DNA of 64,000 nt from Klebsiella phage vB_KpM_FBKp24: the sequence record MW394391.1; one strand, 5' to 3'. The notes under the pieces are model-generated. The model made no database searches, was not told the origin of the DNA, and saw only the letters and a program-made list of their open reading frames with translations. Of this stretch, positions 9,934 to 19,706 are shown in pieces; the stretch's first letter is position 1; every line of letters starts with the position of its first letter. The translations under genes and the position numbers were made by a program.

Positions 9934-10035
9934 TGGTTGTTCCCTTCCGGATTTGAACCGGCAACCTCCTGCTAAGCAGTGGGCGGCGCAGTGGCCGCCG
10001 GTGCAGGCGCTCTACCTAGTTGAGCTACGAGAACA
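9934..10035 (-). ncRNA. aberrant tRNA-like gene (about 102 nt) with a 23-nt GC hairpin insertion in the anticodon arm
   Basis: Canonical D-arm GCTC-AACTAGGTA-GAGC, T-loop TTCAAAT, terminal ACCA. Anticodon stem CCTGC...GCAGG is interrupted by ACCGGCGGCCACTGCGCCGCCCA before loop CTGCTTA. Confidence 0.4.
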
Positions 10036-10912: not shown

Positions 10913-10997
10913 TGGTGCCCAGGGCGGGGCTCGAACCCGCACGCGATAAAGCGAGGGATTTTAAATCCCTTGTGTCTGCCGATTTCACCACCTGGGC
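10913..10997 (-). tRNA. tRNA-Leu (anticodon UAA), type II, CCA encoded
   Basis: Acceptor GCCCAGG/CCTGGGC, anticodon arm AGGGA-TTTAAAA-TCCCT, long variable arm, T-arm CGGG-TTCGAGC-CCCG. Confidence 0.85.
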
Positions 10998-11002
10998 AAA
11001 TA

Positions 11003-11078
11003 TGGTGGGTCCAGCAGGTTTTGAACCTGCGACCAAGCGATTATGAGTCGCCTGCTCTAACCACTGAGCTATGGACCC
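11003..11078 (-). tRNA. tRNA-Met/Ile2 (anticodon CAU), CCA encoded
   Basis: Acceptor GGGTCCA/TGGACCC, D-arm GCTC-AGTGGTTA-GAGC, anticodon arm GGCGA-CTCATAA-TCGCT, T-arm GCAGG-TTCAAAA-CCTGC. Confidence 0.85.
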
Positions 11079-12873: not shown

Positions 12874-13736
12874 TCGGGACGTTTAGAGTAACAACGAGCA
12901 TAAACTTCCTTTGGTTGAATATTCTCTCCCTGAGAACACTTAAAAGCATTAGCGTATTCGTTCTTACCAGCTTTTACTCGGCGACGGTAATTTGGGTTGT
13001 TTTTACTTTGTGAGTTATTCGCCTGGCGGGATTCGTTGTATTTATCCTTCCAATGACTTTTAACTTTCCGGTCCGGGCCATAGTCATCCGAACGTTCTTC
13101 AATCACAACAGGAAACCCTTGTCGCGTCTCTTTCCACCAGACAGAGAATCCCTTCGAGACATCCCAATTTTGATTTGGGTAATGACAAGACAGAAAACGG
13201 GACGCTAATCTTTTAATGGGTGTAAGATCAAAAGCAGTTTGTAACACCTTGCTGGAATGTATTCCCATCCGTAAAAATTCTTCCGTTTGTACTACAGCAT
13301 GTCTCGGCATACGAGACACTTCGCTGTAATAAACATTAGAGTCTTTAGGATGGAAAATAACGACGCCTTCAATCGTTTTGTCTTTTACATCCGGAATTTT
13401 AATTAAACCAATATGATTCCAGTTAGGGAAATGTTTACCTTGACGATTAGCGAAGTGGAGCCATAATTCATTTTCTTTCCACTCCGCTTTTTGTAGATTA
13501 AAGCCTAAGGTTACTTTGGTCAGTTGTTCTTTGAATGTATCAAGAAAAACCTGATAAAGCTCAAAGAACTCAGCAGTCAATTTTACTTCGTTACGTGAAA
13601 CAAACTGTTGTGCGGACCATTCAAGTAAGCAATGACCGAGAATTTCCCAGTCTTTATTTTCATCAGAGAAAGCGGATATCATTTTACGGAGCCTCTGGCT
13701 CAACGTCAAAATGATAATCGTAGTTGAGTCAGTCAT
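12849..13736 (-). CDS. hypothetical protein 295 aa
   Basis: Long ORF of unknown function. Confidence 0.55.
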   Translation of the reverse strand: MTDSTTIIILTLSQRLRKMISAFSDENKDWEILGHCLLEWSAQQFVSRNEVKLTAEFFELYQVFLDTFKEQLTKVTLGFNLQKAEWKENELWLHFANRQGKHFPNWNHIGLIKIPDVKDKTIEGVVIFHPKDSNVYYSEVSRMPRHAVVQTEEFLRMGIHSSKVLQTAFDLTPIKRLASRFLSCHYPNQNWDVSKGFSVWWKETRQGFPVVIEERSDDYGPDRKVKSHWKDKYNESRQANNSQSKNNPNYRRRVKAGKNEYANAFKCSQGENIQPKEVYARCYSKRPEWEDWSFI

Positions 13737-13793
13737 ATTGCCCTCGTTTTACAGTCTTCTACACTAAAAGACTGCACCGTAAAAAAGCATAAT

Positions 13794-13821
13794 AGAGAGA
13801 AGGGTTTAAACCCTTCTCTCT
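13794..13821 (-). terminator. intrinsic terminator (AGAGAGAAGGGTTT/AAACCCTTCTCTCT palindrome) downstream of the permuted tRNA loci
   Basis: 14-bp perfect palindromic stem, T-rich on the minus strand afterwards. Confidence 0.55.
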
Positions 13822-13976
13822 CGAGTTTGTTTGTCAAAAAGCGGTCTCTTTGAGAAAGAAACTTTTAGGGAAGAAGGGCGACGGATAAGGATATAACCAT
13901 CCTCACCGCCACCCATAGCCATTCAGCTATAAACAGAATCCAGCGCGACCTATTTCACAATAAGATTGGGTTTAGG

Positions 13977-14078
13977 TTTATAATCTAGTGCTCTACCAGC
14001 TGAGCTATCTGCCTCCAAGAAACACTCTGTGAATGTGTCCTGGTAGGCAGAGCGGAATTCGAATCCGCGACCTCTAGA
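13977..14078 (-). ncRNA. circularly permuted tRNA-like gene: 3' half (nt 39-76 including CCA) encoded upstream of the 5' half (nt 1-38), 26-nt linker
   Basis: Minus strand reads TCTAG-AGGTC-GCGGA-TTCGAAT-TCCGC-TCTGCCT-A-CCA, then a 26-nt linker, then AGGCAGA-TA-GCTC-AGCTGGTA-GAGC-A-CTAGA-TTATAAA. Acceptor 7/7 and anticodon stem 5/5 complementary between halves. Confidence 0.5.
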
Positions 14079-14159
14079 ATTCTTTCCGTAAAAGAAAGAA
14101 AGTTCAGTCCGCTATTTTACTGTCTACTCTTTATCTTTAAGCGTGTGAGGCGATAAGAT

Positions 14160-14300
14160 AAAGTTAACACTAACCATCCGAGTAGCATTATGGGTGCATT
14201 GATGACTGCGTCTACCAATTCCGCCATTCTCCCATAGTTTGGTGGGAGAAGAAAGATTCGAACTTCCAGTGAGGTCACCACACCTGCTATACGGACTAAC
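14160..14300 (-). ncRNA. second permuted-order tRNA-like element (type II-like): T-arm + TTCTCCC-A-CCA, 6-nt linker, then GGGAGAA + D-arm
   Basis: Minus strand reads GGAAG-TTCGAAT-CTTTC-TTCTCCC-A-CCA-AACTAT-GGGAGAA-TG-GCG-GAATTGGTAGA-CGC... The 3' acceptor strand and CCA precede the complementary 5' acceptor strand (7/7). Anticodon region not resolved by hand. Confidence 0.3.
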
Positions 14301-14369
14301 AATAAAGATAAAGTTGGCCTCAATCTTTATTATCAATGGGCACTCGTGAGAATACCCATTACTAACACA

Positions 14370-15137
14370 TTAAGCAGTGAAGTTTTTCAGGATCACGTTG
14401 GCCAGTACTTCGCCGATGGAACCCTGAACGACTTCGGTGCAGTTTGCGCGCATACGGGCATTAGTGACTTCAACGATCAGTTCGTCGATATCACGCAGCG
14501 CGTTGGCTTTCTGCATCGGTGTACACGCGCCAGAATAACTTTTACGCGTGAAGCTGCCGATCACCACGGTCGTTTCTGACTCTTTTACTTGCGCCGGATG
14601 ACGCTCGGTAGCCGGCGCCAGAATGATCGGGGTGAAGACTTTTTCGGTTTTCGTTGTGACTTCATCAGTCACAGTACGGAAGCCGTAAGTACTGTTAGCG
14701 TCGCGTTCCCACTGTTTGGAGGAATCCAGCGTAGGAGCAGACGCGATCAGTTTGCGCAGTTCGGCCAGACGTTTCTCCAGACCGAGGAGTTCATCTACCG
14801 GCACCGCTGGAACGAGGACTTCGCCTTTGAACATGATATCTGCTTTCGCTACCTGATTGGTCAGGGCTTTTTGCAGGCGCAGGTCTTCCGCGGTGGCGAA
14901 GTAATAGAACAGGTACTGCAGCGTTTCGGCGACGGTAGTGATCACCGGCTTGCTGGTACTTTCGCTTTTTTCGATCGCTGCGTTGGCGTCGCTATCTTCG
15001 TGCAGTTTCAGCGTTTTATCAAATCCGCTGAAGTATTCAGCCGATTTATTGAATTTTTTACTGGCGTCTTCGATCAGCACTTGCACTTGTTTAGTGCGAG
15101 TAGGTTCTGCTGCCAATACTTCGTGTAACTTAGCCAT
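14370..15137 (-). CDS. hypothetical protein 255 aa, strongly codon-optimised (probably abundant), A/E/K-rich
   Basis: Codon usage dominated by CTG/CGT/GAA/AAA-type preferred codons, unlike its neighbours. GGAAATTAAATG RBS. Confidence 0.65.
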   Translation of the reverse strand: MAKLHEVLAAEPTRTKQVQVLIEDASKKFNKSAEYFSGFDKTLKLHEDSDANAAIEKSESTSKPVITTVAETLQYLFYYFATAEDLRLQKALTNQVAKADIMFKGEVLVPAVPVDELLGLEKRLAELRKLIASAPTLDSSKQWERDANSTYGFRTVTDEVTTKTEKVFTPIILAPATERHPAQVKESETTVVIGSFTRKSYSGACTPMQKANALRDIDELIVEVTNARMRANCTEVVQGSIGEVLANVILKNFTA

Positions 15138-15213
15138 TTAATTTCCTTACGATAAGAGTGAGAATAACGTCTGTTCATAGACTAGTTATCACCGTAAAAA
15201 AATAAAAAAAAAA

Positions 15214-15235
15214 GAAAGGGGATAACACCCCTTTC
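15214..15235 (-). terminator. intrinsic terminator (GAAAGGGG-ATAACA-CCCCTTTC) with a long T-run on the minus strand
   Basis: Hairpin followed on the minus strand by TTTTTTTTTTATTTTTTT. Confidence 0.65.
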
Positions 15236-15243
15236 TACGTTAC

Positions 15244-15825
15244 TTAATTGAGTGCTAAGCGGAAAACAATTCCGCTGTAGTGACCGCCTAAATCAAGTCT
15301 GGATGCCAGAATGGTACGAAACCCGAATGCCTTGGCGATATTACGGAACCCAGAGACATTGACAACCGGCTCGTAACGATCACCTTCGCAGTCATCGGGA
15401 AGTTCGGATTCTGTTTTGCGTAGAATAATTTCCTGAAGATCAGGAATCATCTTGAACGCATAATTCACGAGATCTTCACGTACCCAGGCGAGGTAATTGT
15501 CATAGTCAAAGTTATCGAGCATCGGGACAAGGAACAGTCGGGTACGATGGTAGTCGTTGACAGTTTCGACCAGTTCGTACGATTTTACTTTTCGTACCCC
15601 TGCGCAGTACAGATTATCCAGAGTATCCTGAAGCTCTGGATTAAACGGATGGTCTAACCCTGTCAGGTCATGGACGGTGGTGAATTCTGTTAATTCTGTC
15701 TCCGCTGCGCCCGGCGGGCAGTTGTCTGTCACGGAGATTACGATCCGTTTTGTATTTGAATCAGATACACTCCCCGACAAATTAAAGGCCGAAACAAATT
15801 TACCTAACGAAATCAATTGTTCCAT
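15244..15825 (-). CDS. hypothetical protein 193 aa
   Basis: ORF with terminators on both sides. Confidence 0.6.
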   Translation of the reverse strand: MEQLISLGKFVSAFNLSGSVSDSNTKRIVISVTDNCPPGAAETELTEFTTVHDLTGLDHPFNPELQDTLDNLYCAGVRKVKSYELVETVNDYHRTRLFLVPMLDNFDYDNYLAWVREDLVNYAFKMIPDLQEIILRKTESELPDDCEGDRYEPVVNVSGFRNIAKAFGFRTILASRLDLGGHYSGIVFRLALN

Positions 15826-16732: not shown

Positions 16733-17902
16733 TTAAAGAAAACTGGTTTTGGTCAATTTTGCCATTTCAACGGTATTTTCCCAGTTGAGTGCTTCCGCCA
16801 AAGTAACGTCCTTACGGCCGTTAAAATCTACAGGTGGGTAATTTACAGCAGCGCGTGCACGGTTGGCTTCTTCTGGGGACAGTGATCTGAATGGCAACGC
16901 TTTGAATAATCGTCCGGGACGAATAATCGCATCGTCTACGCCTTTAAGGTTCAGAATATTAGTCGAGATAATAAATTTGACGTTACCAGAAGTAATCCCT
17001 TCTACTGCGTTCAATAACCCAGACATCAGGCTATTGCCACTTTCACGTCGTTCAAGCATAACTTGTTGGTCTTCGGTAATAAACCACGAACCATCATCGA
17101 GATCATGAAGGTAGGGAATAAGACCGGGAGAAGTCAGAACATCGGTCGTATCTGCGACGATGATGTTGTCTTGCTTTTGTTGGTTTTTCCAACGTATCAT
17201 TTCTCGAATGAATTGGCTCTTACCCAAACCAGGCGCACCATATAACACCAATACATTGTTATTGGATTTATCAAACGCCTCCGCTAATTCCGCCGGGGAA
17301 GTTGATAAATAAGGCCAAAAGCCGGTATAATCGTTTATCGTTCTTTTTGACTCTAGGCGTTTATTACGACCTACCACCGCTTTATTAACATTTAACGAAA
17401 GACGCCCTACGGTTTCCGGGAGAGGGGCAGTAAAGAAAGCAGAGACAATGTCGACAAACCCCTGGCATATCTCCTCAGGGCCATAGCAGTTTACAAAGTT
17501 TTCTGAAATGCCCGATCCGAAATAAAGCATTCCGATAATTTTACCACGATTATTCGCAAGGAGAAAACTCCCTGGTATAATTTCGGTGTGCGTGAAAACA
17601 TTAAACTCCTTCAAGTAATCTTTTAACGGACCGCCAATAAGACTATCTACTGCGCGATTTAATTCGCGTTGATTACCAACCAGCCAAAACCCTTTTCGCG
17701 AGAATGCCATCGGGCGGTTATTGACGCCTAAGAAAAGACGTATTGCCTTTTTAACAGCTTCATTGGAGTTACGTACATCAGCAGAAATACGACAAAATAT
17801 ATCGAAGAATTCCATCATCTCTTCTTTGAGTTTACCGCTATCTGCATGAGAGTTAGAGGAAAGACTTTTGGTGTAGCTATCGTTTTTACTTTCATTGGCC
17901 AT
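16733..17902 (-). CDS. classic-clade AAA ATPase, paralog A (389 aa)
   Basis: Walker A GAPGLGKSQF, Walker B-like SWFITED, sensor-1 KFIISTN, and RPGR (second region of homology / Arg finger). The C-terminal block is shared with the 18438-19706 protein. Confidence 0.7.
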   Translation of the reverse strand: MANESKNDSYTKSLSSNSHADSGKLKEEMMEFFDIFCRISADVRNSNEAVKKAIRLFLGVNNRPMAFSRKGFWLVGNQRELNRAVDSLIGGPLKDYLKEFNVFTHTEIIPGSFLLANNRGKIIGMLYFGSGISENFVNCYGPEEICQGFVDIVSAFFTAPLPETVGRLSLNVNKAVVGRNKRLESKRTINDYTGFWPYLSTSPAELAEAFDKSNNNVLVLYGAPGLGKSQFIREMIRWKNQQKQDNIIVADTTDVLTSPGLIPYLHDLDDGSWFITEDQQVMLERRESGNSLMSGLLNAVEGITSGNVKFIISTNILNLKGVDDAIIRPGRLFKALPFRSLSPEEANRARAAVNYPPVDFNGRKDVTLAEALNWENTVEMAKLTKTSFL

Positions 17903-18437: not shown

Positions 18438-19706
18438 TTAGCGGCTGATGAAACCGCCTTGTTTGATTTCGCTCTGCAGCGCTTGATACGCTTCCCAGTT
18501 TAACGCCTCTGCTAAACTGAGTTTAGACACGCTACCGAAATCAATCGGAAGATGTCCGACTGCGGCACGCGCGGCGTTCGCTTGGTCAGGGGTTAACGAT
18601 TTAAACGGAATGACGCGTAACGTGCGGCCGGGACGATATAGCGCGTGATCAACGTCTTTCAGCGAGGTGATGTTAGTTGAGATAATGAACTTGACATTAC
18701 CGGAAGTAATTCCTTCGGCAGCATTCAGAATCCCTGCCATCAGACTGTTACCCATATCGCGAGCTTCGATCATCTCGTGGGCGTCTTCGGTCACTAACCA
18801 ACTGTTACTGGCCATGTCGTGAACGTAGGGCGTAAACTGTGGTGATTTGAACACTGGGTTGTCATCGCAGACAAATACCGTACCATGAGAGTTCGCGTCT
18901 TTCCATTTGATCATCTCAGCGATATATTGACTCTTACCTAACCCTGGTTCACCGTAAAGAATCAGTACGTTGGAGTCACTGGCTTCAAACTCCGCTGCCA
19001 TCTCACGGGGTGGTTTTGGTGCGAAGGGCCAAAAGGCTTTTGGGTCAGTCACAGGGCGCCGCTGTTTCAGTGTTTTATACTGACTTTGGATACCACCATT
19101 ACCACCTAAAAAGAGCCGGCGGATAGAAATACTCTTCTCTTTACATTGGAAACTACAGAAGATATCTTTGAGGATTTTCCCGATCGATAAGTCACCAACG
19201 TAATGAAATAGTTGTTGGCTACCGTTATCGTCCAGCTGGCAGGCCCCTACGATTTTATCCTCGCGGAAGATAAAGAAACTCCTGTGACTTAATGACTCAG
19301 TATAGATTCCGTACCGATTCATTTTGTCCAAGAAAAGTTTCAGTACTTCCATTTCAAATTGAAAGACTGCGTCGCCAAAAGGACGTTCGTAGTTAATGAA
19401 CGTGTAAATACGCACTGCTTCTCTTTCAACCTGTTGAAAGAAACGCAATAATAGTACCTGGTTATTTAAATTATCACTAACACGTTCTGGGGAGGGGTAA
19501 AGTCCTTTAAAGATCAGACTGTGGAATCGTTTAATTTCTTCGTACTTTTTAGCGCGAGACGTTTCACTGAGCGGTGGGTAATCTAATAATAGCTCATGGA
19601 AGATCGCAGTACGAGAAGCCAACTCAGTATCATTCCCTTCTTCGATTTCTTCTTCCCATGGCGCTGGGGCTTCTTCTAATGCTTCACGAATAGCTTGTAA
19701 GGACAT
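18438..19706 (-). CDS. classic-clade AAA ATPase, paralog B (422 aa)
   Basis: Walker A GEPGLGKSQY, SWLVTED, KFIISTN, RPGR. The last ~150 aa align almost motif-for-motif with paralog A, while the N-terminal domain differs. Confidence 0.7.
   Translation of the reverse strand: MSLQAIREALEEAPAPWEEEIEEGNDTELASRTAIFHELLLDYPPLSETSRAKKYEEIKRFHSLIFKGLYPSPERVSDNLNNQVLLLRFFQQVEREAVRIYTFINYERPFGDAVFQFEMEVLKLFLDKMNRYGIYTESLSHRSFFIFREDKIVGACQLDDNGSQQLFHYVGDLSIGKILKDIFCSFQCKEKSISIRRLFLGGNGGIQSQYKTLKQRRPVTDPKAFWPFAPKPPREMAAEFEASDSNVLILYGEPGLGKSQYIAEMIKWKDANSHGTVFVCDDNPVFKSPQFTPYVHDMASNSWLVTEDAHEMIEARDMGNSLMAGILNAAEGITSGNVKFIISTNITSLKDVDHALYRPGRTLRVIPFKSLTPDQANAARAAVGHLPIDFGSVSKLSLAEALNWEAYQALQSEIKQGGFISR

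Follow-up and report, generated by a model that had tools for sequence, protein, structure and literature searches.

A permuted, doubled tRNA-like RNA adjoins the DUF7873 gene in a Klebsiella jumbo phage and in diverse phages and bacteria

In the 64,000-nt stretch of the genome of Klebsiella phage vB_KpM_FBKp24 that was analysed here (record MW394391.1; the whole stretch is referred to as the window), a short element on the minus strand carries the parts of a tRNA in permuted order. A sequence-only reading had taken this element for a circularly permuted tRNA gene. In this study, the element, named module B, was found to be a closed tRNA-like domain in a structured RNA of about 550 nt, and not a split tRNA. 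The same RNA contains a second domain of this kind, module A, and lies directly behind a gene for a DUF7873 protein, both in this phage and in many other phages and bacteria. Taken as a whole, this architecture and the proposal that the RNA is a tRNA mimic acting together with DUF7873 are likely to be correct. No Rfam 15 family reached its gathering score for the RNA, and no publication describing the RNA or the DUF7873 protein was found in the searchable literature; it is apparently a widespread conserved RNA that has not yet been described.

Read on the minus strand from 14078 to 13984, module B places the T arm and the 3' acceptor strand ahead of the 5' acceptor strand and the D arm, with a linker between the two acceptor strands. 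The letters agree base for base with the sequence-only reading, and the 3' half stands ahead of a complementary 5' half, as in a permuted gene. The permuted order described earlier is thus borne out, with acceptor and closing stem paired throughout (Table 1), and so is the observation that neither a 5' half upstream nor a 3' half downstream could serve as a colinear partner. The linker hairpin was also recovered; in the RNAalifold consensus it continues or stacks on the acceptor stem, and the CC of the 'CCA' is paired with the GG directly before the acceptor 5' strand. The encoded CCA is present in the window but reads CCT in all close relatives examined, including phage Centimanus. The proposed 7-nt anticodon loop did not survive comparison with two related loci, L088 and L089, whose DUF7873 proteins are 62-63% identical: UUAUAAA of the window is UCAAACU in L088 and UUAAACU in L089, and the flanks pair into covarying helices. 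The suggested anticodon AUA, with its possible reading of UAA, falls together with the loop. What remains of the permuted tRNA gene is therefore its conserved permuted order, but not a decoding tRNA, since no conserved anticodon loop exists. At its gathering score, the Rfam tRNA model RF00005 reported no tRNA at 13977-14125 and eight ordinary tRNAs elsewhere in the tRNA cluster of the window.

The closed architecture is observed directly in the alignments. L088 and L089 align with the window over the whole intergenic region of about 520 nt, and RNAalifold on the three sequences gave 110 consensus pairs, 36 of them with compensatory changes. In the closing helix of domain A (UGAGGC/GCCUCA) a G-C pair is replaced by A-U in both L088 and L089. 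The outer closing helix of domain B comprises 8 bp with double-sided changes in four of the eight pairs, and the inner helix, 9 bp with a bulged G, shows compensatory changes in both relatives; hairpin H5 and the single-stranded motif CCAAUCUUAUUGUGAAAUAG sit between these closing helices and module B. An alignment of 23 actinomycetes and 3 actinophages contained 65 consensus pairs, of which 53 had double-sided changes, and there module B stands on a long multi-segment lower stem with an invariant CUUAAACG within it. Because the strands that had been read as an anticodon stem run on into covarying long-range helices, each unit is a closed tRNA-like domain within a larger RNA. Neither the window clade nor the actinomycete alignment holds a conserved 7-nt loop or anticodon, and the consensus folds show a multi-helix junction with H5 instead of a bulge-helix-bulge junction. 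A group I permuted intron-exon arrangement was considered and rejected: no group I intron match was found at 13300-15300 with E up to 10, and the flanks are explained by the covarying helices.

Module A, overlooked in the sequence-only reading, lies 123 nt upstream of module B and has an identical layout. Its D arm is tRNA-Leu-like, the same as the D arm of E. coli tRNA-Leu, and its acceptor ends in ACCA. Hairpin H1, near the stop codon, has the same top (AUUC...GAGU) as the linker of module B. Single-stranded parts are conserved as well. The CCAAUCUUAUUGUGAAAUAG motif is near-invariant across the window, L088 and L089 while its flanks vary, and motifs of a related type, AUCGUUAUCGUAA, follow the units in other phage lineages; between the modules, motifs related to UAUCGCC read CUCAGAYUCUCGCUCCAG in actinomycetes and GAUUAUCGCUCU in phages. 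The AUCGUUAUCGUAA motif was tried as a mini open reading frame (ORF), as it often ends in UAA, and as the 3' strand of a local hairpin. The latter holds for some copies only; the frames and stops of the former are inconsistent across loci, and the motif was not found in the actinomycete alignment. On account of these inconsistent frames and its absence from that alignment, it is treated here as a lineage-specific single-stranded motif.

To count such units, a descriptor was used that combines a T stem with a TTCRANN-type loop, a 7/7 acceptor across a linker of 3-90 nt, a D arm with GG in the loop and a 5/5 closing stem. The locus set comprised 80 viral contigs with DUF7873 homologues of 33-50% identity. 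In its strict form, the descriptor gave 69 matches in the window and these loci, every one on the DUF7873 strand, and none in three shuffles of 746 kb. With one mismatch allowed, 122 matches were found on the gene strand, with at least one match in 76 of 82 loci, as against 22 on the opposite strand and 23 in the shuffles (both strands). Modules A and B were the only perfect matches in the whole 300-kb Centimanus genome. An Infernal model, R1, was seeded with 22 long-linker units of the type of module B (B-type, with a 4-bp D stem; A-type units have a 3-bp D stem and a Leu-like D loop). Of 59 viral and phage loci outside the seed, 53 had an R1 match of 42-77 bits directly behind the gene, including four loci overlooked by the descriptor; the model found nothing elsewhere in the Centimanus genome. 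Chen et al. have warned of 'dimeric tRNA' false positives for YrlA-type models (PMC4201824); tandem junctions of ordinary tRNAs reached only 21-37 bits with R1. At E up to 0.01, R1 did not report module A of the window, its seed being made of long-linker B-type units.

The linkage of this RNA to DUF7873 is also a direct observation. A permuted unit was located within 1.3 kb downstream of DUF7873 in 71 of 80 non-redundant loci from viral contigs and cultured phages; the units were always on the same strand as DUF7873 and started about 50-330 nt past its stop codon. A tblastn search revealed DUF7873 in 73 phage records, with hosts including Klebsiella, Ralstonia (phiRSL1), Rhizobium, Vibrio, Arthrobacter, Gordonia, Rhodococcus and Pseudanabaena; no phiKZ-type phage was among the 60 records listed. 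In the phages of Rhizobium, Arthrobacter, Vibrio, Gordonia and Rhodococcus, the gene lies inside a tRNA gene cluster, on the strand of the tRNAs, and is followed by an unannotated gap. Units were present in the gap after DUF7873 in all eight cultured phages tested, whose hosts belong to three phyla. The usual order in cultured phages is an A-type unit and then a B-type unit, and the A-type unit stands ahead of the B-type unit in 13 loci.

The same association extends to bacterial chromosomes. When one genome was scanned for each species of bacteria and archaea, at least 576 DUF7873 matches were obtained in bacteria, mainly in Actinomycetes and also in cyanobacteria, Myxococcota, Chloroflexi and Planctomycetota. 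Among 80 bacterial loci that were fetched, R1 gave two matches directly after the gene and on its strand in nearly all, the first about 80-100 nt and the second about 230-330 nt past the stop codon. The flanks of these loci hold unrelated housekeeping genes: 85 Pfam families were matched among 150 ORFs, none of them recurrent, and neither phage genes nor a TROVE or RtcB protein appeared among the 25 families listed for these ORFs. Since the bacterial neighbours are unrelated, the protein and the RNA form the sole constant linkage. In the converse test, a sequence pattern for the RNA alone gave 98 matches in IMG/VR, namely 52 ordinary tRNA 3' ends, 31 permuted genes of transfer-messenger RNA (tmRNA), seven D-arm-bearing permuted modules and eight others. 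All seven D-arm-bearing modules lie behind a DUF7873 gene, which ends 49-852 nt upstream; none of the 31 permuted tmRNA genes has DUF7873. The sequence-only reading was not aware of such an arrangement in phages; it is widespread in phages and bacteria, always adjoining DUF7873.

Among the close relatives of the window phage, Centimanus (about 300 kb) is 99.6% identical to the window. Its annotation is that of a chimallivirus and includes PhuZ tubulin, a protein of the nuclear shell and split beta subunits of RNA polymerase. Across the region, identity is about 89% for ten further records of Klebsiella jumbo phages, among them Siatvirus KpLz-2_45 and LPKP23. In five aligned sequences, hardly any change is seen between the DUF7873 stop codon and the end of the second unit, and the sequence beyond it diverges. 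The window phage is closely related to Centimanus but distinct from it: Centimanus has an HNH endonuclease gene between tRNA-Met and tRNA-Leu (OZ240615, 117876-118337), and these two tRNAs are only 5 nt apart in the window (10997-11003). The two genomes also differ in the CCA/CCT base of module B.

The DUF7873 gene and the RNA look like one transcription unit, because terminator-like hairpins are found only before the gene (15236-15213) and after the RNA (Table 1). No terminator-like site was seen between the stop codon of DUF7873 and 13821, and by its sequence the RNA appears to be co-transcribed with the gene. As a separate observation, both terminator-like hairpins are followed by the motif TTTTTTACGGTG (about 15190-15205 and 13775-13790, minus strand; TTTTTTACGGTAAAC in relatives), which could be a phage promoter or a restart signal.

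The acceptor end was examined at positions 74-76, which the detector does not use. Of 48 units, 31 have CCA at these positions and 43 have CC-N. Units with short linkers of 6-15 nt carry CCA in 17 of 18 cases (by manual reading of the list), and the A/U-rich stretch behind it mostly has UAU at its end. In long linkers of 25-43 nt, the terminal GG pairs with the CC, and many of them contain a CAUUC...GAGUG hairpin. The two unit types also differ at N73: it is A in 24 of 31 A-type units, with CCA encoded in eight, and variable in the 67 B-type units (U 26, G 22, A 12, C 7), with CCA encoded in 47. The tRNA body varies by lineage and may be Leu-like, Glu-like or generic. Permuted tmRNA genes give transcripts that tRNA-processing enzymes cut into two base-paired pieces (PMC11915505). 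YrlA of Mycobacterium smegmatis, with an acceptor of 7 bp, is a substrate of RNase P both in vivo and in vitro and acquires CCA while its halves stay together, and the added CCA has been proposed to shield the cleaved RNA from exonucleases (Chen et al. 2014, PMC4201824). In view of these parallels, the phage modules could plausibly be opened by RNase P and given a CCA end, and at least the short-linker forms are probably processed at the acceptor end.

The explanation that we favour is as follows. Module B would be part of a structured RNA of about 550 nt that is transcribed with, or directly behind, the DUF7873 gene. In each domain, the T arm, the 7-bp acceptor formed across the linker and the D arm would build the 'top half' and elbow of a tRNA, while a stem of 5-6 bp would replace the anticodon stem and lead into the long-range helices; such an RNA would act as a tRNA mimic and not as a decoder. 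With its conserved 7-bp acceptor, U8, G18-G19, the loop of TPsiC type, N73-CC(A) and the A/U-rich leader ending in U, the module could plausibly be cut by RNase P, trimmed at the 3' side and extended by the CCA-adding enzyme. The linker may be removed in this way, and the product would be a nicked molecule in two pieces whose 3' end is tRNA-like, as in M. smegmatis YrlA and two-piece tmRNA. The RNA would act with the DUF7873 protein, as a ribonucleoprotein (RNP) or regulator, or on its mRNA; a role with DUF7873 is most likely because this is the sole constant neighbour across phages and bacteria.

Several points weigh against this explanation. Adjacency alone cannot tell an RNP partner from an element in the 3' untranslated region (3' UTR) of the DUF7873 mRNA, and the converse linkage test comprises seven cases only. 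The predicted fold of DUF7873 gives no hint of RNA binding; the AlphaFold2 (AF2) model has a pLDDT (predicted local distance difference test) of 90.4, and no informative structural or sequence relative was found for the protein. In bacterial copies, the acceptor is closed by a loop of 7-9 nt (e.g., U-CCA-CAU, U-CU-UCGU) with CCA in about half of them. In long-linker units it is closed by a stable hairpin, CCA is only about 50% conserved, and the closest relatives of module B have CCT. Many copies may therefore stay uncut, like YrlA of Salmonella. The descriptor demands pairing, so that its percent-paired figures are circular; significance was judged from the shuffles, the strand asymmetry, the clustering of positions and the Infernal model. 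Finally, the transcription, processing and stability of the RNA, its partnership with DUF7873 and its biological role are inferred.

A bolder form of the favoured explanation can be entertained only tentatively. DUF7873 and the double tRNA-like RNA may constitute an unrecognised ancient RNP system of bacteria (Actinomycetes, cyanobacteria, Myxococcota and Chloroflexi) and of phages, in which the cassette lies inside tRNA clusters. RNase P and CCA addition would turn the modules into two-piece mimics without an anticodon, and module A could be aminoacylated and used off the ribosome, or could serve as a decoy or regulator of tRNA-directed enzymes during infection. The leucyl-tRNA synthetase of E. 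coli relies on features such as the Leu-like D arm and A73 and does not read the anticodon. Module A could thus be aminoacylated, because it has kept a Leu-like D arm and A73.

After the favoured explanation, a cis-acting role in the 3' UTR ranks first, followed by a Ro-dependent Y RNA, with a true decoding tRNA very unlikely. In the first case, an RNase P cut at module A or B would set the 3' end of the DUF7873 mRNA, and a CCA-ended tRNA-like cap would resist 3' exonucleases, as in MALAT1/mascRNA, with no function in trans. The position of the RNA suits this role, as it always lies on the strand of the gene, about 50-330 nt past the stop codon, with no terminator between, and so do the RNase P-type features with N73-CC(A) and the CCA protection proposed for cleaved YrlA by Chen et al. 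(PMC4201824). The 3' tRNA-like structures of plant viruses and mascRNA are likewise tRNA mimics placed 3' of a coding or long RNA, and are recognised by RNase P, the CCA-adding enzyme or aminoacyl-tRNA synthetases. However, those mimics are colinear or pseudoknotted and stand at RNA termini, whereas the modules here are permuted, present twice, closed internally and linked to a single protein family. Formation of a 3' end needs far less than two elaborate modules with long closing stems and invariant single-stranded motifs, and the type-specific A73 and Leu-like D arm of module A suggest recognition by tRNA-binding factors. A role confined to the 3' end is on balance improbable, but it overlaps with the favoured explanation and is compatible with it.

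One of the two nearest known architectures, beside the tRNA-like domain of two-piece tmRNA, is that of YrlA, a bacterial Y RNA (Chen et al. 2014, PMC4201824). An RNA of this family would bind Ro60/Rsr, encoded by host or phage, through its closing stem and recruit an effector such as polynucleotide phosphorylase (PNPase) through its tRNA-like module. The order of T arm, acceptor stem-loop and D arm, closed by a long bulged stem of flanking sequence, is identical here, the tertiary nucleotides of tRNA are kept, and a tandem pair is known there too (YrlA and YrlB). The 7-bp acceptor is shared with YrlA of M. smegmatis, which is itself cut by RNase P and CCA-tailed with its two pieces remaining together. 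In all lineages tested, no Rfam family matched module B better than YrlA (31-39 bits, E about 1e-3 to 1e-6); in the window, RF02553 scored 37.9 bits over the tRNA-like part only. However, these scores are about half of the gathering score of 69. The Ro-binding motif GNCGAAN0-1G was not enriched, being found in 5/90, 7/103 and 1/14 units versus 1.9, 6.1 and 0.5 expected from shuffles, and the window reads GGACUGAA. TROVE (PF05731) was not detected among the window neighbours or 42 large unannotated proteins of the phage genome, a set from which one 567-aa ORF (248764-250467 in the Centimanus record) was left out. Nor was it detected within 4 kb of about 70 viral loci; the flanks there hold 50 ORFs of at least 380 aa, of which 30 were scanned singly and the other 20 were judged from a table of the top 25 families. 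The constant neighbour is an upstream DUF7873 gene and not Rsr. Further differences are that two modules share one RNA of about 400-550 nt with invariant motifs of its own, and that the phage cassette lies inside tRNA gene clusters. For these reasons a Ro-dependent Y RNA is quite unlikely.

Two proteins near the loci bear on the question of a Ro partner. A protein with DUF2828 and DUF7788 domains is encoded 1.9 kb downstream of the RNA in L026 (7043-8494). In L086 (1105-2673), the sequence upstream of the RNA codes for a 523-aa protein whose C-terminal part is a vWA domain. DUF2828 is a domain that we take to be related to TROVE, which could not be confirmed by the literature or by similarity to solved structures. 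The two proteins are possibly Ro-like, but neither has sequence similarity to solved Ro60 structures.

A two-piece rescue or tagging RNA of the tmRNA kind, with DUF7873 in the part of SmpB, is highly doubtful. The smpB gene commonly precedes ssrA, and here too a protein gene stands immediately upstream of the RNA. Shared with the two-piece tmRNAs (beta_tmRNA RF01850 and tmRNA_permuted RF04321; Nawrocki et al. 2025, PMC11915505), from which tRNA-processing enzymes remove an intervening segment, is the placement of T arm, 3' acceptor strand and CCA ahead of the 5' acceptor strand. The parallel to permuted tmRNA genes that the sequence-only reading drew was apt. Even the long linker, CC-A-GG...CAUUC...GAGUG...UGG, resembles the intervening segment of the beta type. 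Behind the modules, short motifs rich in U, C and G often lead into stop codons, but no consistent reading frame or resume codon was found, and pseudoknots and a tag reading frame are lacking. The D arm and the closed lower stem of anticodon type are complete, unlike the tRNA-like domain of tmRNA. The G3:U70 pair of alanine identity does not occur: in 48 units the 3:70 pairs are GC (27), UA (9), CG (8), AU (3) and UG (1), and those of the window are G3-C70. The Rfam tmRNA models reached about 25 bits against gathering scores of 84; beta_tmRNA gave 24.5-25.3 bits, aligned to the T arm, acceptor, CCA and intervening segment, that is, the tRNA-like part only. None of the tmRNA-like matches has DUF7873 nearby, DUF7873 has no SmpB-like fold match, and Gordonia phage Phendrix possesses a normal tmRNA in addition to the cassette. 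The RNA is a tRNA mimic of the YrlA and two-piece tmRNA kind with a different partner, and a member of neither family.

The permuted tmRNA genes found with the RNA-only pattern are an observation in their own right. They occupy 31 loci within L186-L282 (e.g., L190, L204 and L213) in IMG/VR viral contigs and share the intervening hairpin CAUUC...GAGUG with the long-linker modules. The tmRNA of Phendrix (L105, 470-998; NC_070764, about 83523-84051) scored 89 bits with Rfam and lies in a feature-free gap of the tRNA cluster; at 529 nt, as against 374 positions in the model, it is possibly interrupted by an insertion or an intron.

A true circularly permuted tRNA gene is very unlikely. Its transcript would be circularised or ligated and cut again to yield a decoding tRNA, or would give a two-piece tRNA nicked in the anticodon loop. 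The permuted tRNA genes of Cyanidioschyzon merolae, some green algae and Thermofilum likewise have the 3' half upstream of the 5' half and a short intervening sequence between the ends of the acceptor strands (Soma 2014, PMC3978253). Those genes yield a full cloverleaf with an anticodon loop by way of a bulge-helix-bulge, a splicing endonuclease and circularisation, whereas here no anticodon loop, bulge-helix-bulge or such enzyme was found and the ends are locked in a helix. The acceptor and anticodon-type stems are perfectly complementary, and the phage has genes for RNA end healing (polynucleotide kinase, KptA/Tpt1 and a DHH phosphoesterase), but no RNA ligase is annotated in the Centimanus record. 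The flanks pair into covarying closing helices without a conserved 7-nt loop or any group I intron signal, the body type differs by lineage with no anticodon, and the same RNA is found in bacterial chromosomes that have full tRNA sets. The end-healing genes are located in OZ240615 at 186364-186960 (polynucleotide kinase), 187432-188376 (DHH phosphoesterase) and 264618-265187 (KptA/Tpt1 RNA 2'-phosphotransferase); without an annotated ligase they would be an incomplete RNA-repair set. An artefact, whether chance, a tandem or degenerate tRNA junction, a decaying pseudogene or the misassembly that the sequence-only reading had considered, is already refuted by the comparative data: tandem tRNA junctions do match YrlA-type models weakly, but no missing halves flank the unit, its two acceptor strands are complementary to each other, compensatory conservation reaches from Klebsiella phages to actinomycetes and cyanobacteria, and eleven independently sequenced phage genomes match the region, with the arrangement common to the five that were aligned.

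A colinear suppressor tRNA was also considered and ruled out. ARAGORN reports a tRNA-Stop(tta) at 14041-14125 on the minus strand, which borrows the T arm and the acceptor 3' strand of module B. This call is an artefact with a 5/7 acceptor stem, in which the unrelated hairpin H5 is taken as the anticodon arm; the loop of H5 is not conserved, and the Rfam threshold is not reached. Public phage records carry the element under this name (OZ240615, CENTIMANUS_00118; PV112478, JNLGKPLP_00318), and the suppressor label 'tRNA-Stop/TERM (tta)' in them is wrong.

Table 1. Positions of the DUF7873 gene, the RNA behind it and their parts in the window. Positions are those of the window; paired strands are separated by a slash.
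Feature	Positions	Strand	Sequence or pairing	Basis or remark
DUF7873 protein gene, 255 aa	14370-15137	minus		Pfam PF25283, 242.8 bits
Structured noncoding RNA or long 3' UTR with two permuted tRNA-like modules	13822-14369	minus		folding z-score -8.0
Hairpin H1, just past stop codon	14336-14359	minus	core GGGUAUUC-UCAC-GAGUGCCC	RNAalifold pairs and sequence
Domain A closing helix, 5' strand	14317-14322	minus	UGAGGC	pairs with 14146-14151
Module A, permuted tRNA-like unit	14202-14278	minus	GTGAC CTCACT GGAAG-TTCGAAT-CTTTC TTCTCCC A CCA aactat GGGAGAA TG GCG-GAATTGGTAGA-CGC A GTCAT	detector match, 0 mismatches; stems covary in L088 and L089
Domain A closing helix, 3' strand	14146-14151	minus	GCCUCA	inside widely conserved UAUCGCC motif
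Domain B outer closing helix, 5' strand	14120-14127	minus	GUAGACAG	pairs with 13929-13936
Domain B inner closing helix, 5' strand	14106-14114	minus	UAGCGGACU	pairs with 13941-13950 around bulged G
Hairpin H5	14080-14100	minus	UUCUUUC-UUUUACG-GAAAGAA	stem covaries; loop sequence and length differ in L088 and L089
Module B	13984-14078	minus		sequence, detector, Infernal model R1 83.4 bits
Module B closing stem	14078-14074 / 13988-13984	minus	TCTAG / CTAGA	pairs 5/5
Module B variable loop	14073-14069	minus	AGGTC	sequence
Module B T arm	14068-14052	minus	GCGGA-TTCGAAT-TCCGC	sequence
Module B acceptor	14051-14045 / 14014-14008	minus	TCTGCCT / AGGCAGA	pairs 7/7
Module B discriminator and CCA	14044; 14043-14041	minus	A; CCA	sequence
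Module B linker, 26 nt	14040-14015	minus	GGACACATTCACAGAGTGTTTCTTGG	hairpin
Module B U8-A9	14007-14006	minus	TA	sequence
Module B D arm, followed by A	14005-13990; 13989	minus	GCTC-AGCTGGTA-GAGC; A	sequence
Stretch 3' of module B closing stem	13983-13977	minus	TTATAAA	sequence
Single-stranded junction motif between module B and closing-helix 3' strand	13951-13970	minus	CCAAUCUUAUUGUGAAAUAG	alignment
Domain B inner closing helix, 3' strand	13941-13950	minus	GGUC-G-CGCUG, bulged G	RNAalifold
Domain B outer closing helix, 3' strand	13929-13936	minus	CUGUUUAU	RNAalifold
3' hairpin of the RNA	13876-13914	minus	GGGUGGCGGUGAGGAUGG-UUAU-AUCCUUAUCCGUCGCCC	RNAalifold with covariation; minimum free energy fold
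Intrinsic-terminator-like hairpin, end of DUF7873 and RNA unit	13794-13821	minus	12-bp stem, then T-rich tail

This study defines a widespread structured RNA that occurs, beyond bacteria, in many phages of Proteobacteria, Actinobacteria and cyanobacteria. It provides a first functional handle on DUF7873, for which a double tRNA mimic is the single constant partner in genomes. The natural circular permutations known for tRNA, so far represented by permuted tRNA genes, two-piece tmRNA and YrlA, gain a fourth lineage, and the linker hairpin common to this lineage and to two-piece tmRNA genes bears on the origin and processing of such permutations. Mimics without an anticodon loop in phage tRNA clusters are candidate players in the tRNA-centred arms race between phages and hosts.

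Some further observations concern the surroundings of the cassette. Two paralogous AAA-ATPase genes (phrog_14322) are located a few kb upstream of DUF7873 in the window (16733-17902 and 18438-19706, minus strand), and AAA/nSTAND-like ATPases similar to this pair are found near the cassette in L022 and L086. Adenylosuccinate-synthetase-like genes account for six of 50 large viral flank ORFs near DUF7873 and one lies directly upstream of it in L053 (2563-3825); that they are of the PurZ type, which would point to 2-aminoadenine genomes, is a guess only. In L087 (5504-7813), a 770-aa protein with a Cas12f1-like TNB domain (TnpB/Cas12-like) is encoded about 500 nt downstream of the RNA. Unusually long tRNA matches were also seen. 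Those of 124-126 nt near the cassette in phiRSL1 (L098, 4066-4189) and Vibrio phage K479 (L101, 1662-1787) probably bear an intron or insertion. In the window, Rfam reported a 97-nt tRNA at 9938-10034 (minus strand, 38 bits) that ARAGORN did not report; it may carry an insertion, and Centimanus has a tRNA-Gly annotated in the matching part of its cluster.

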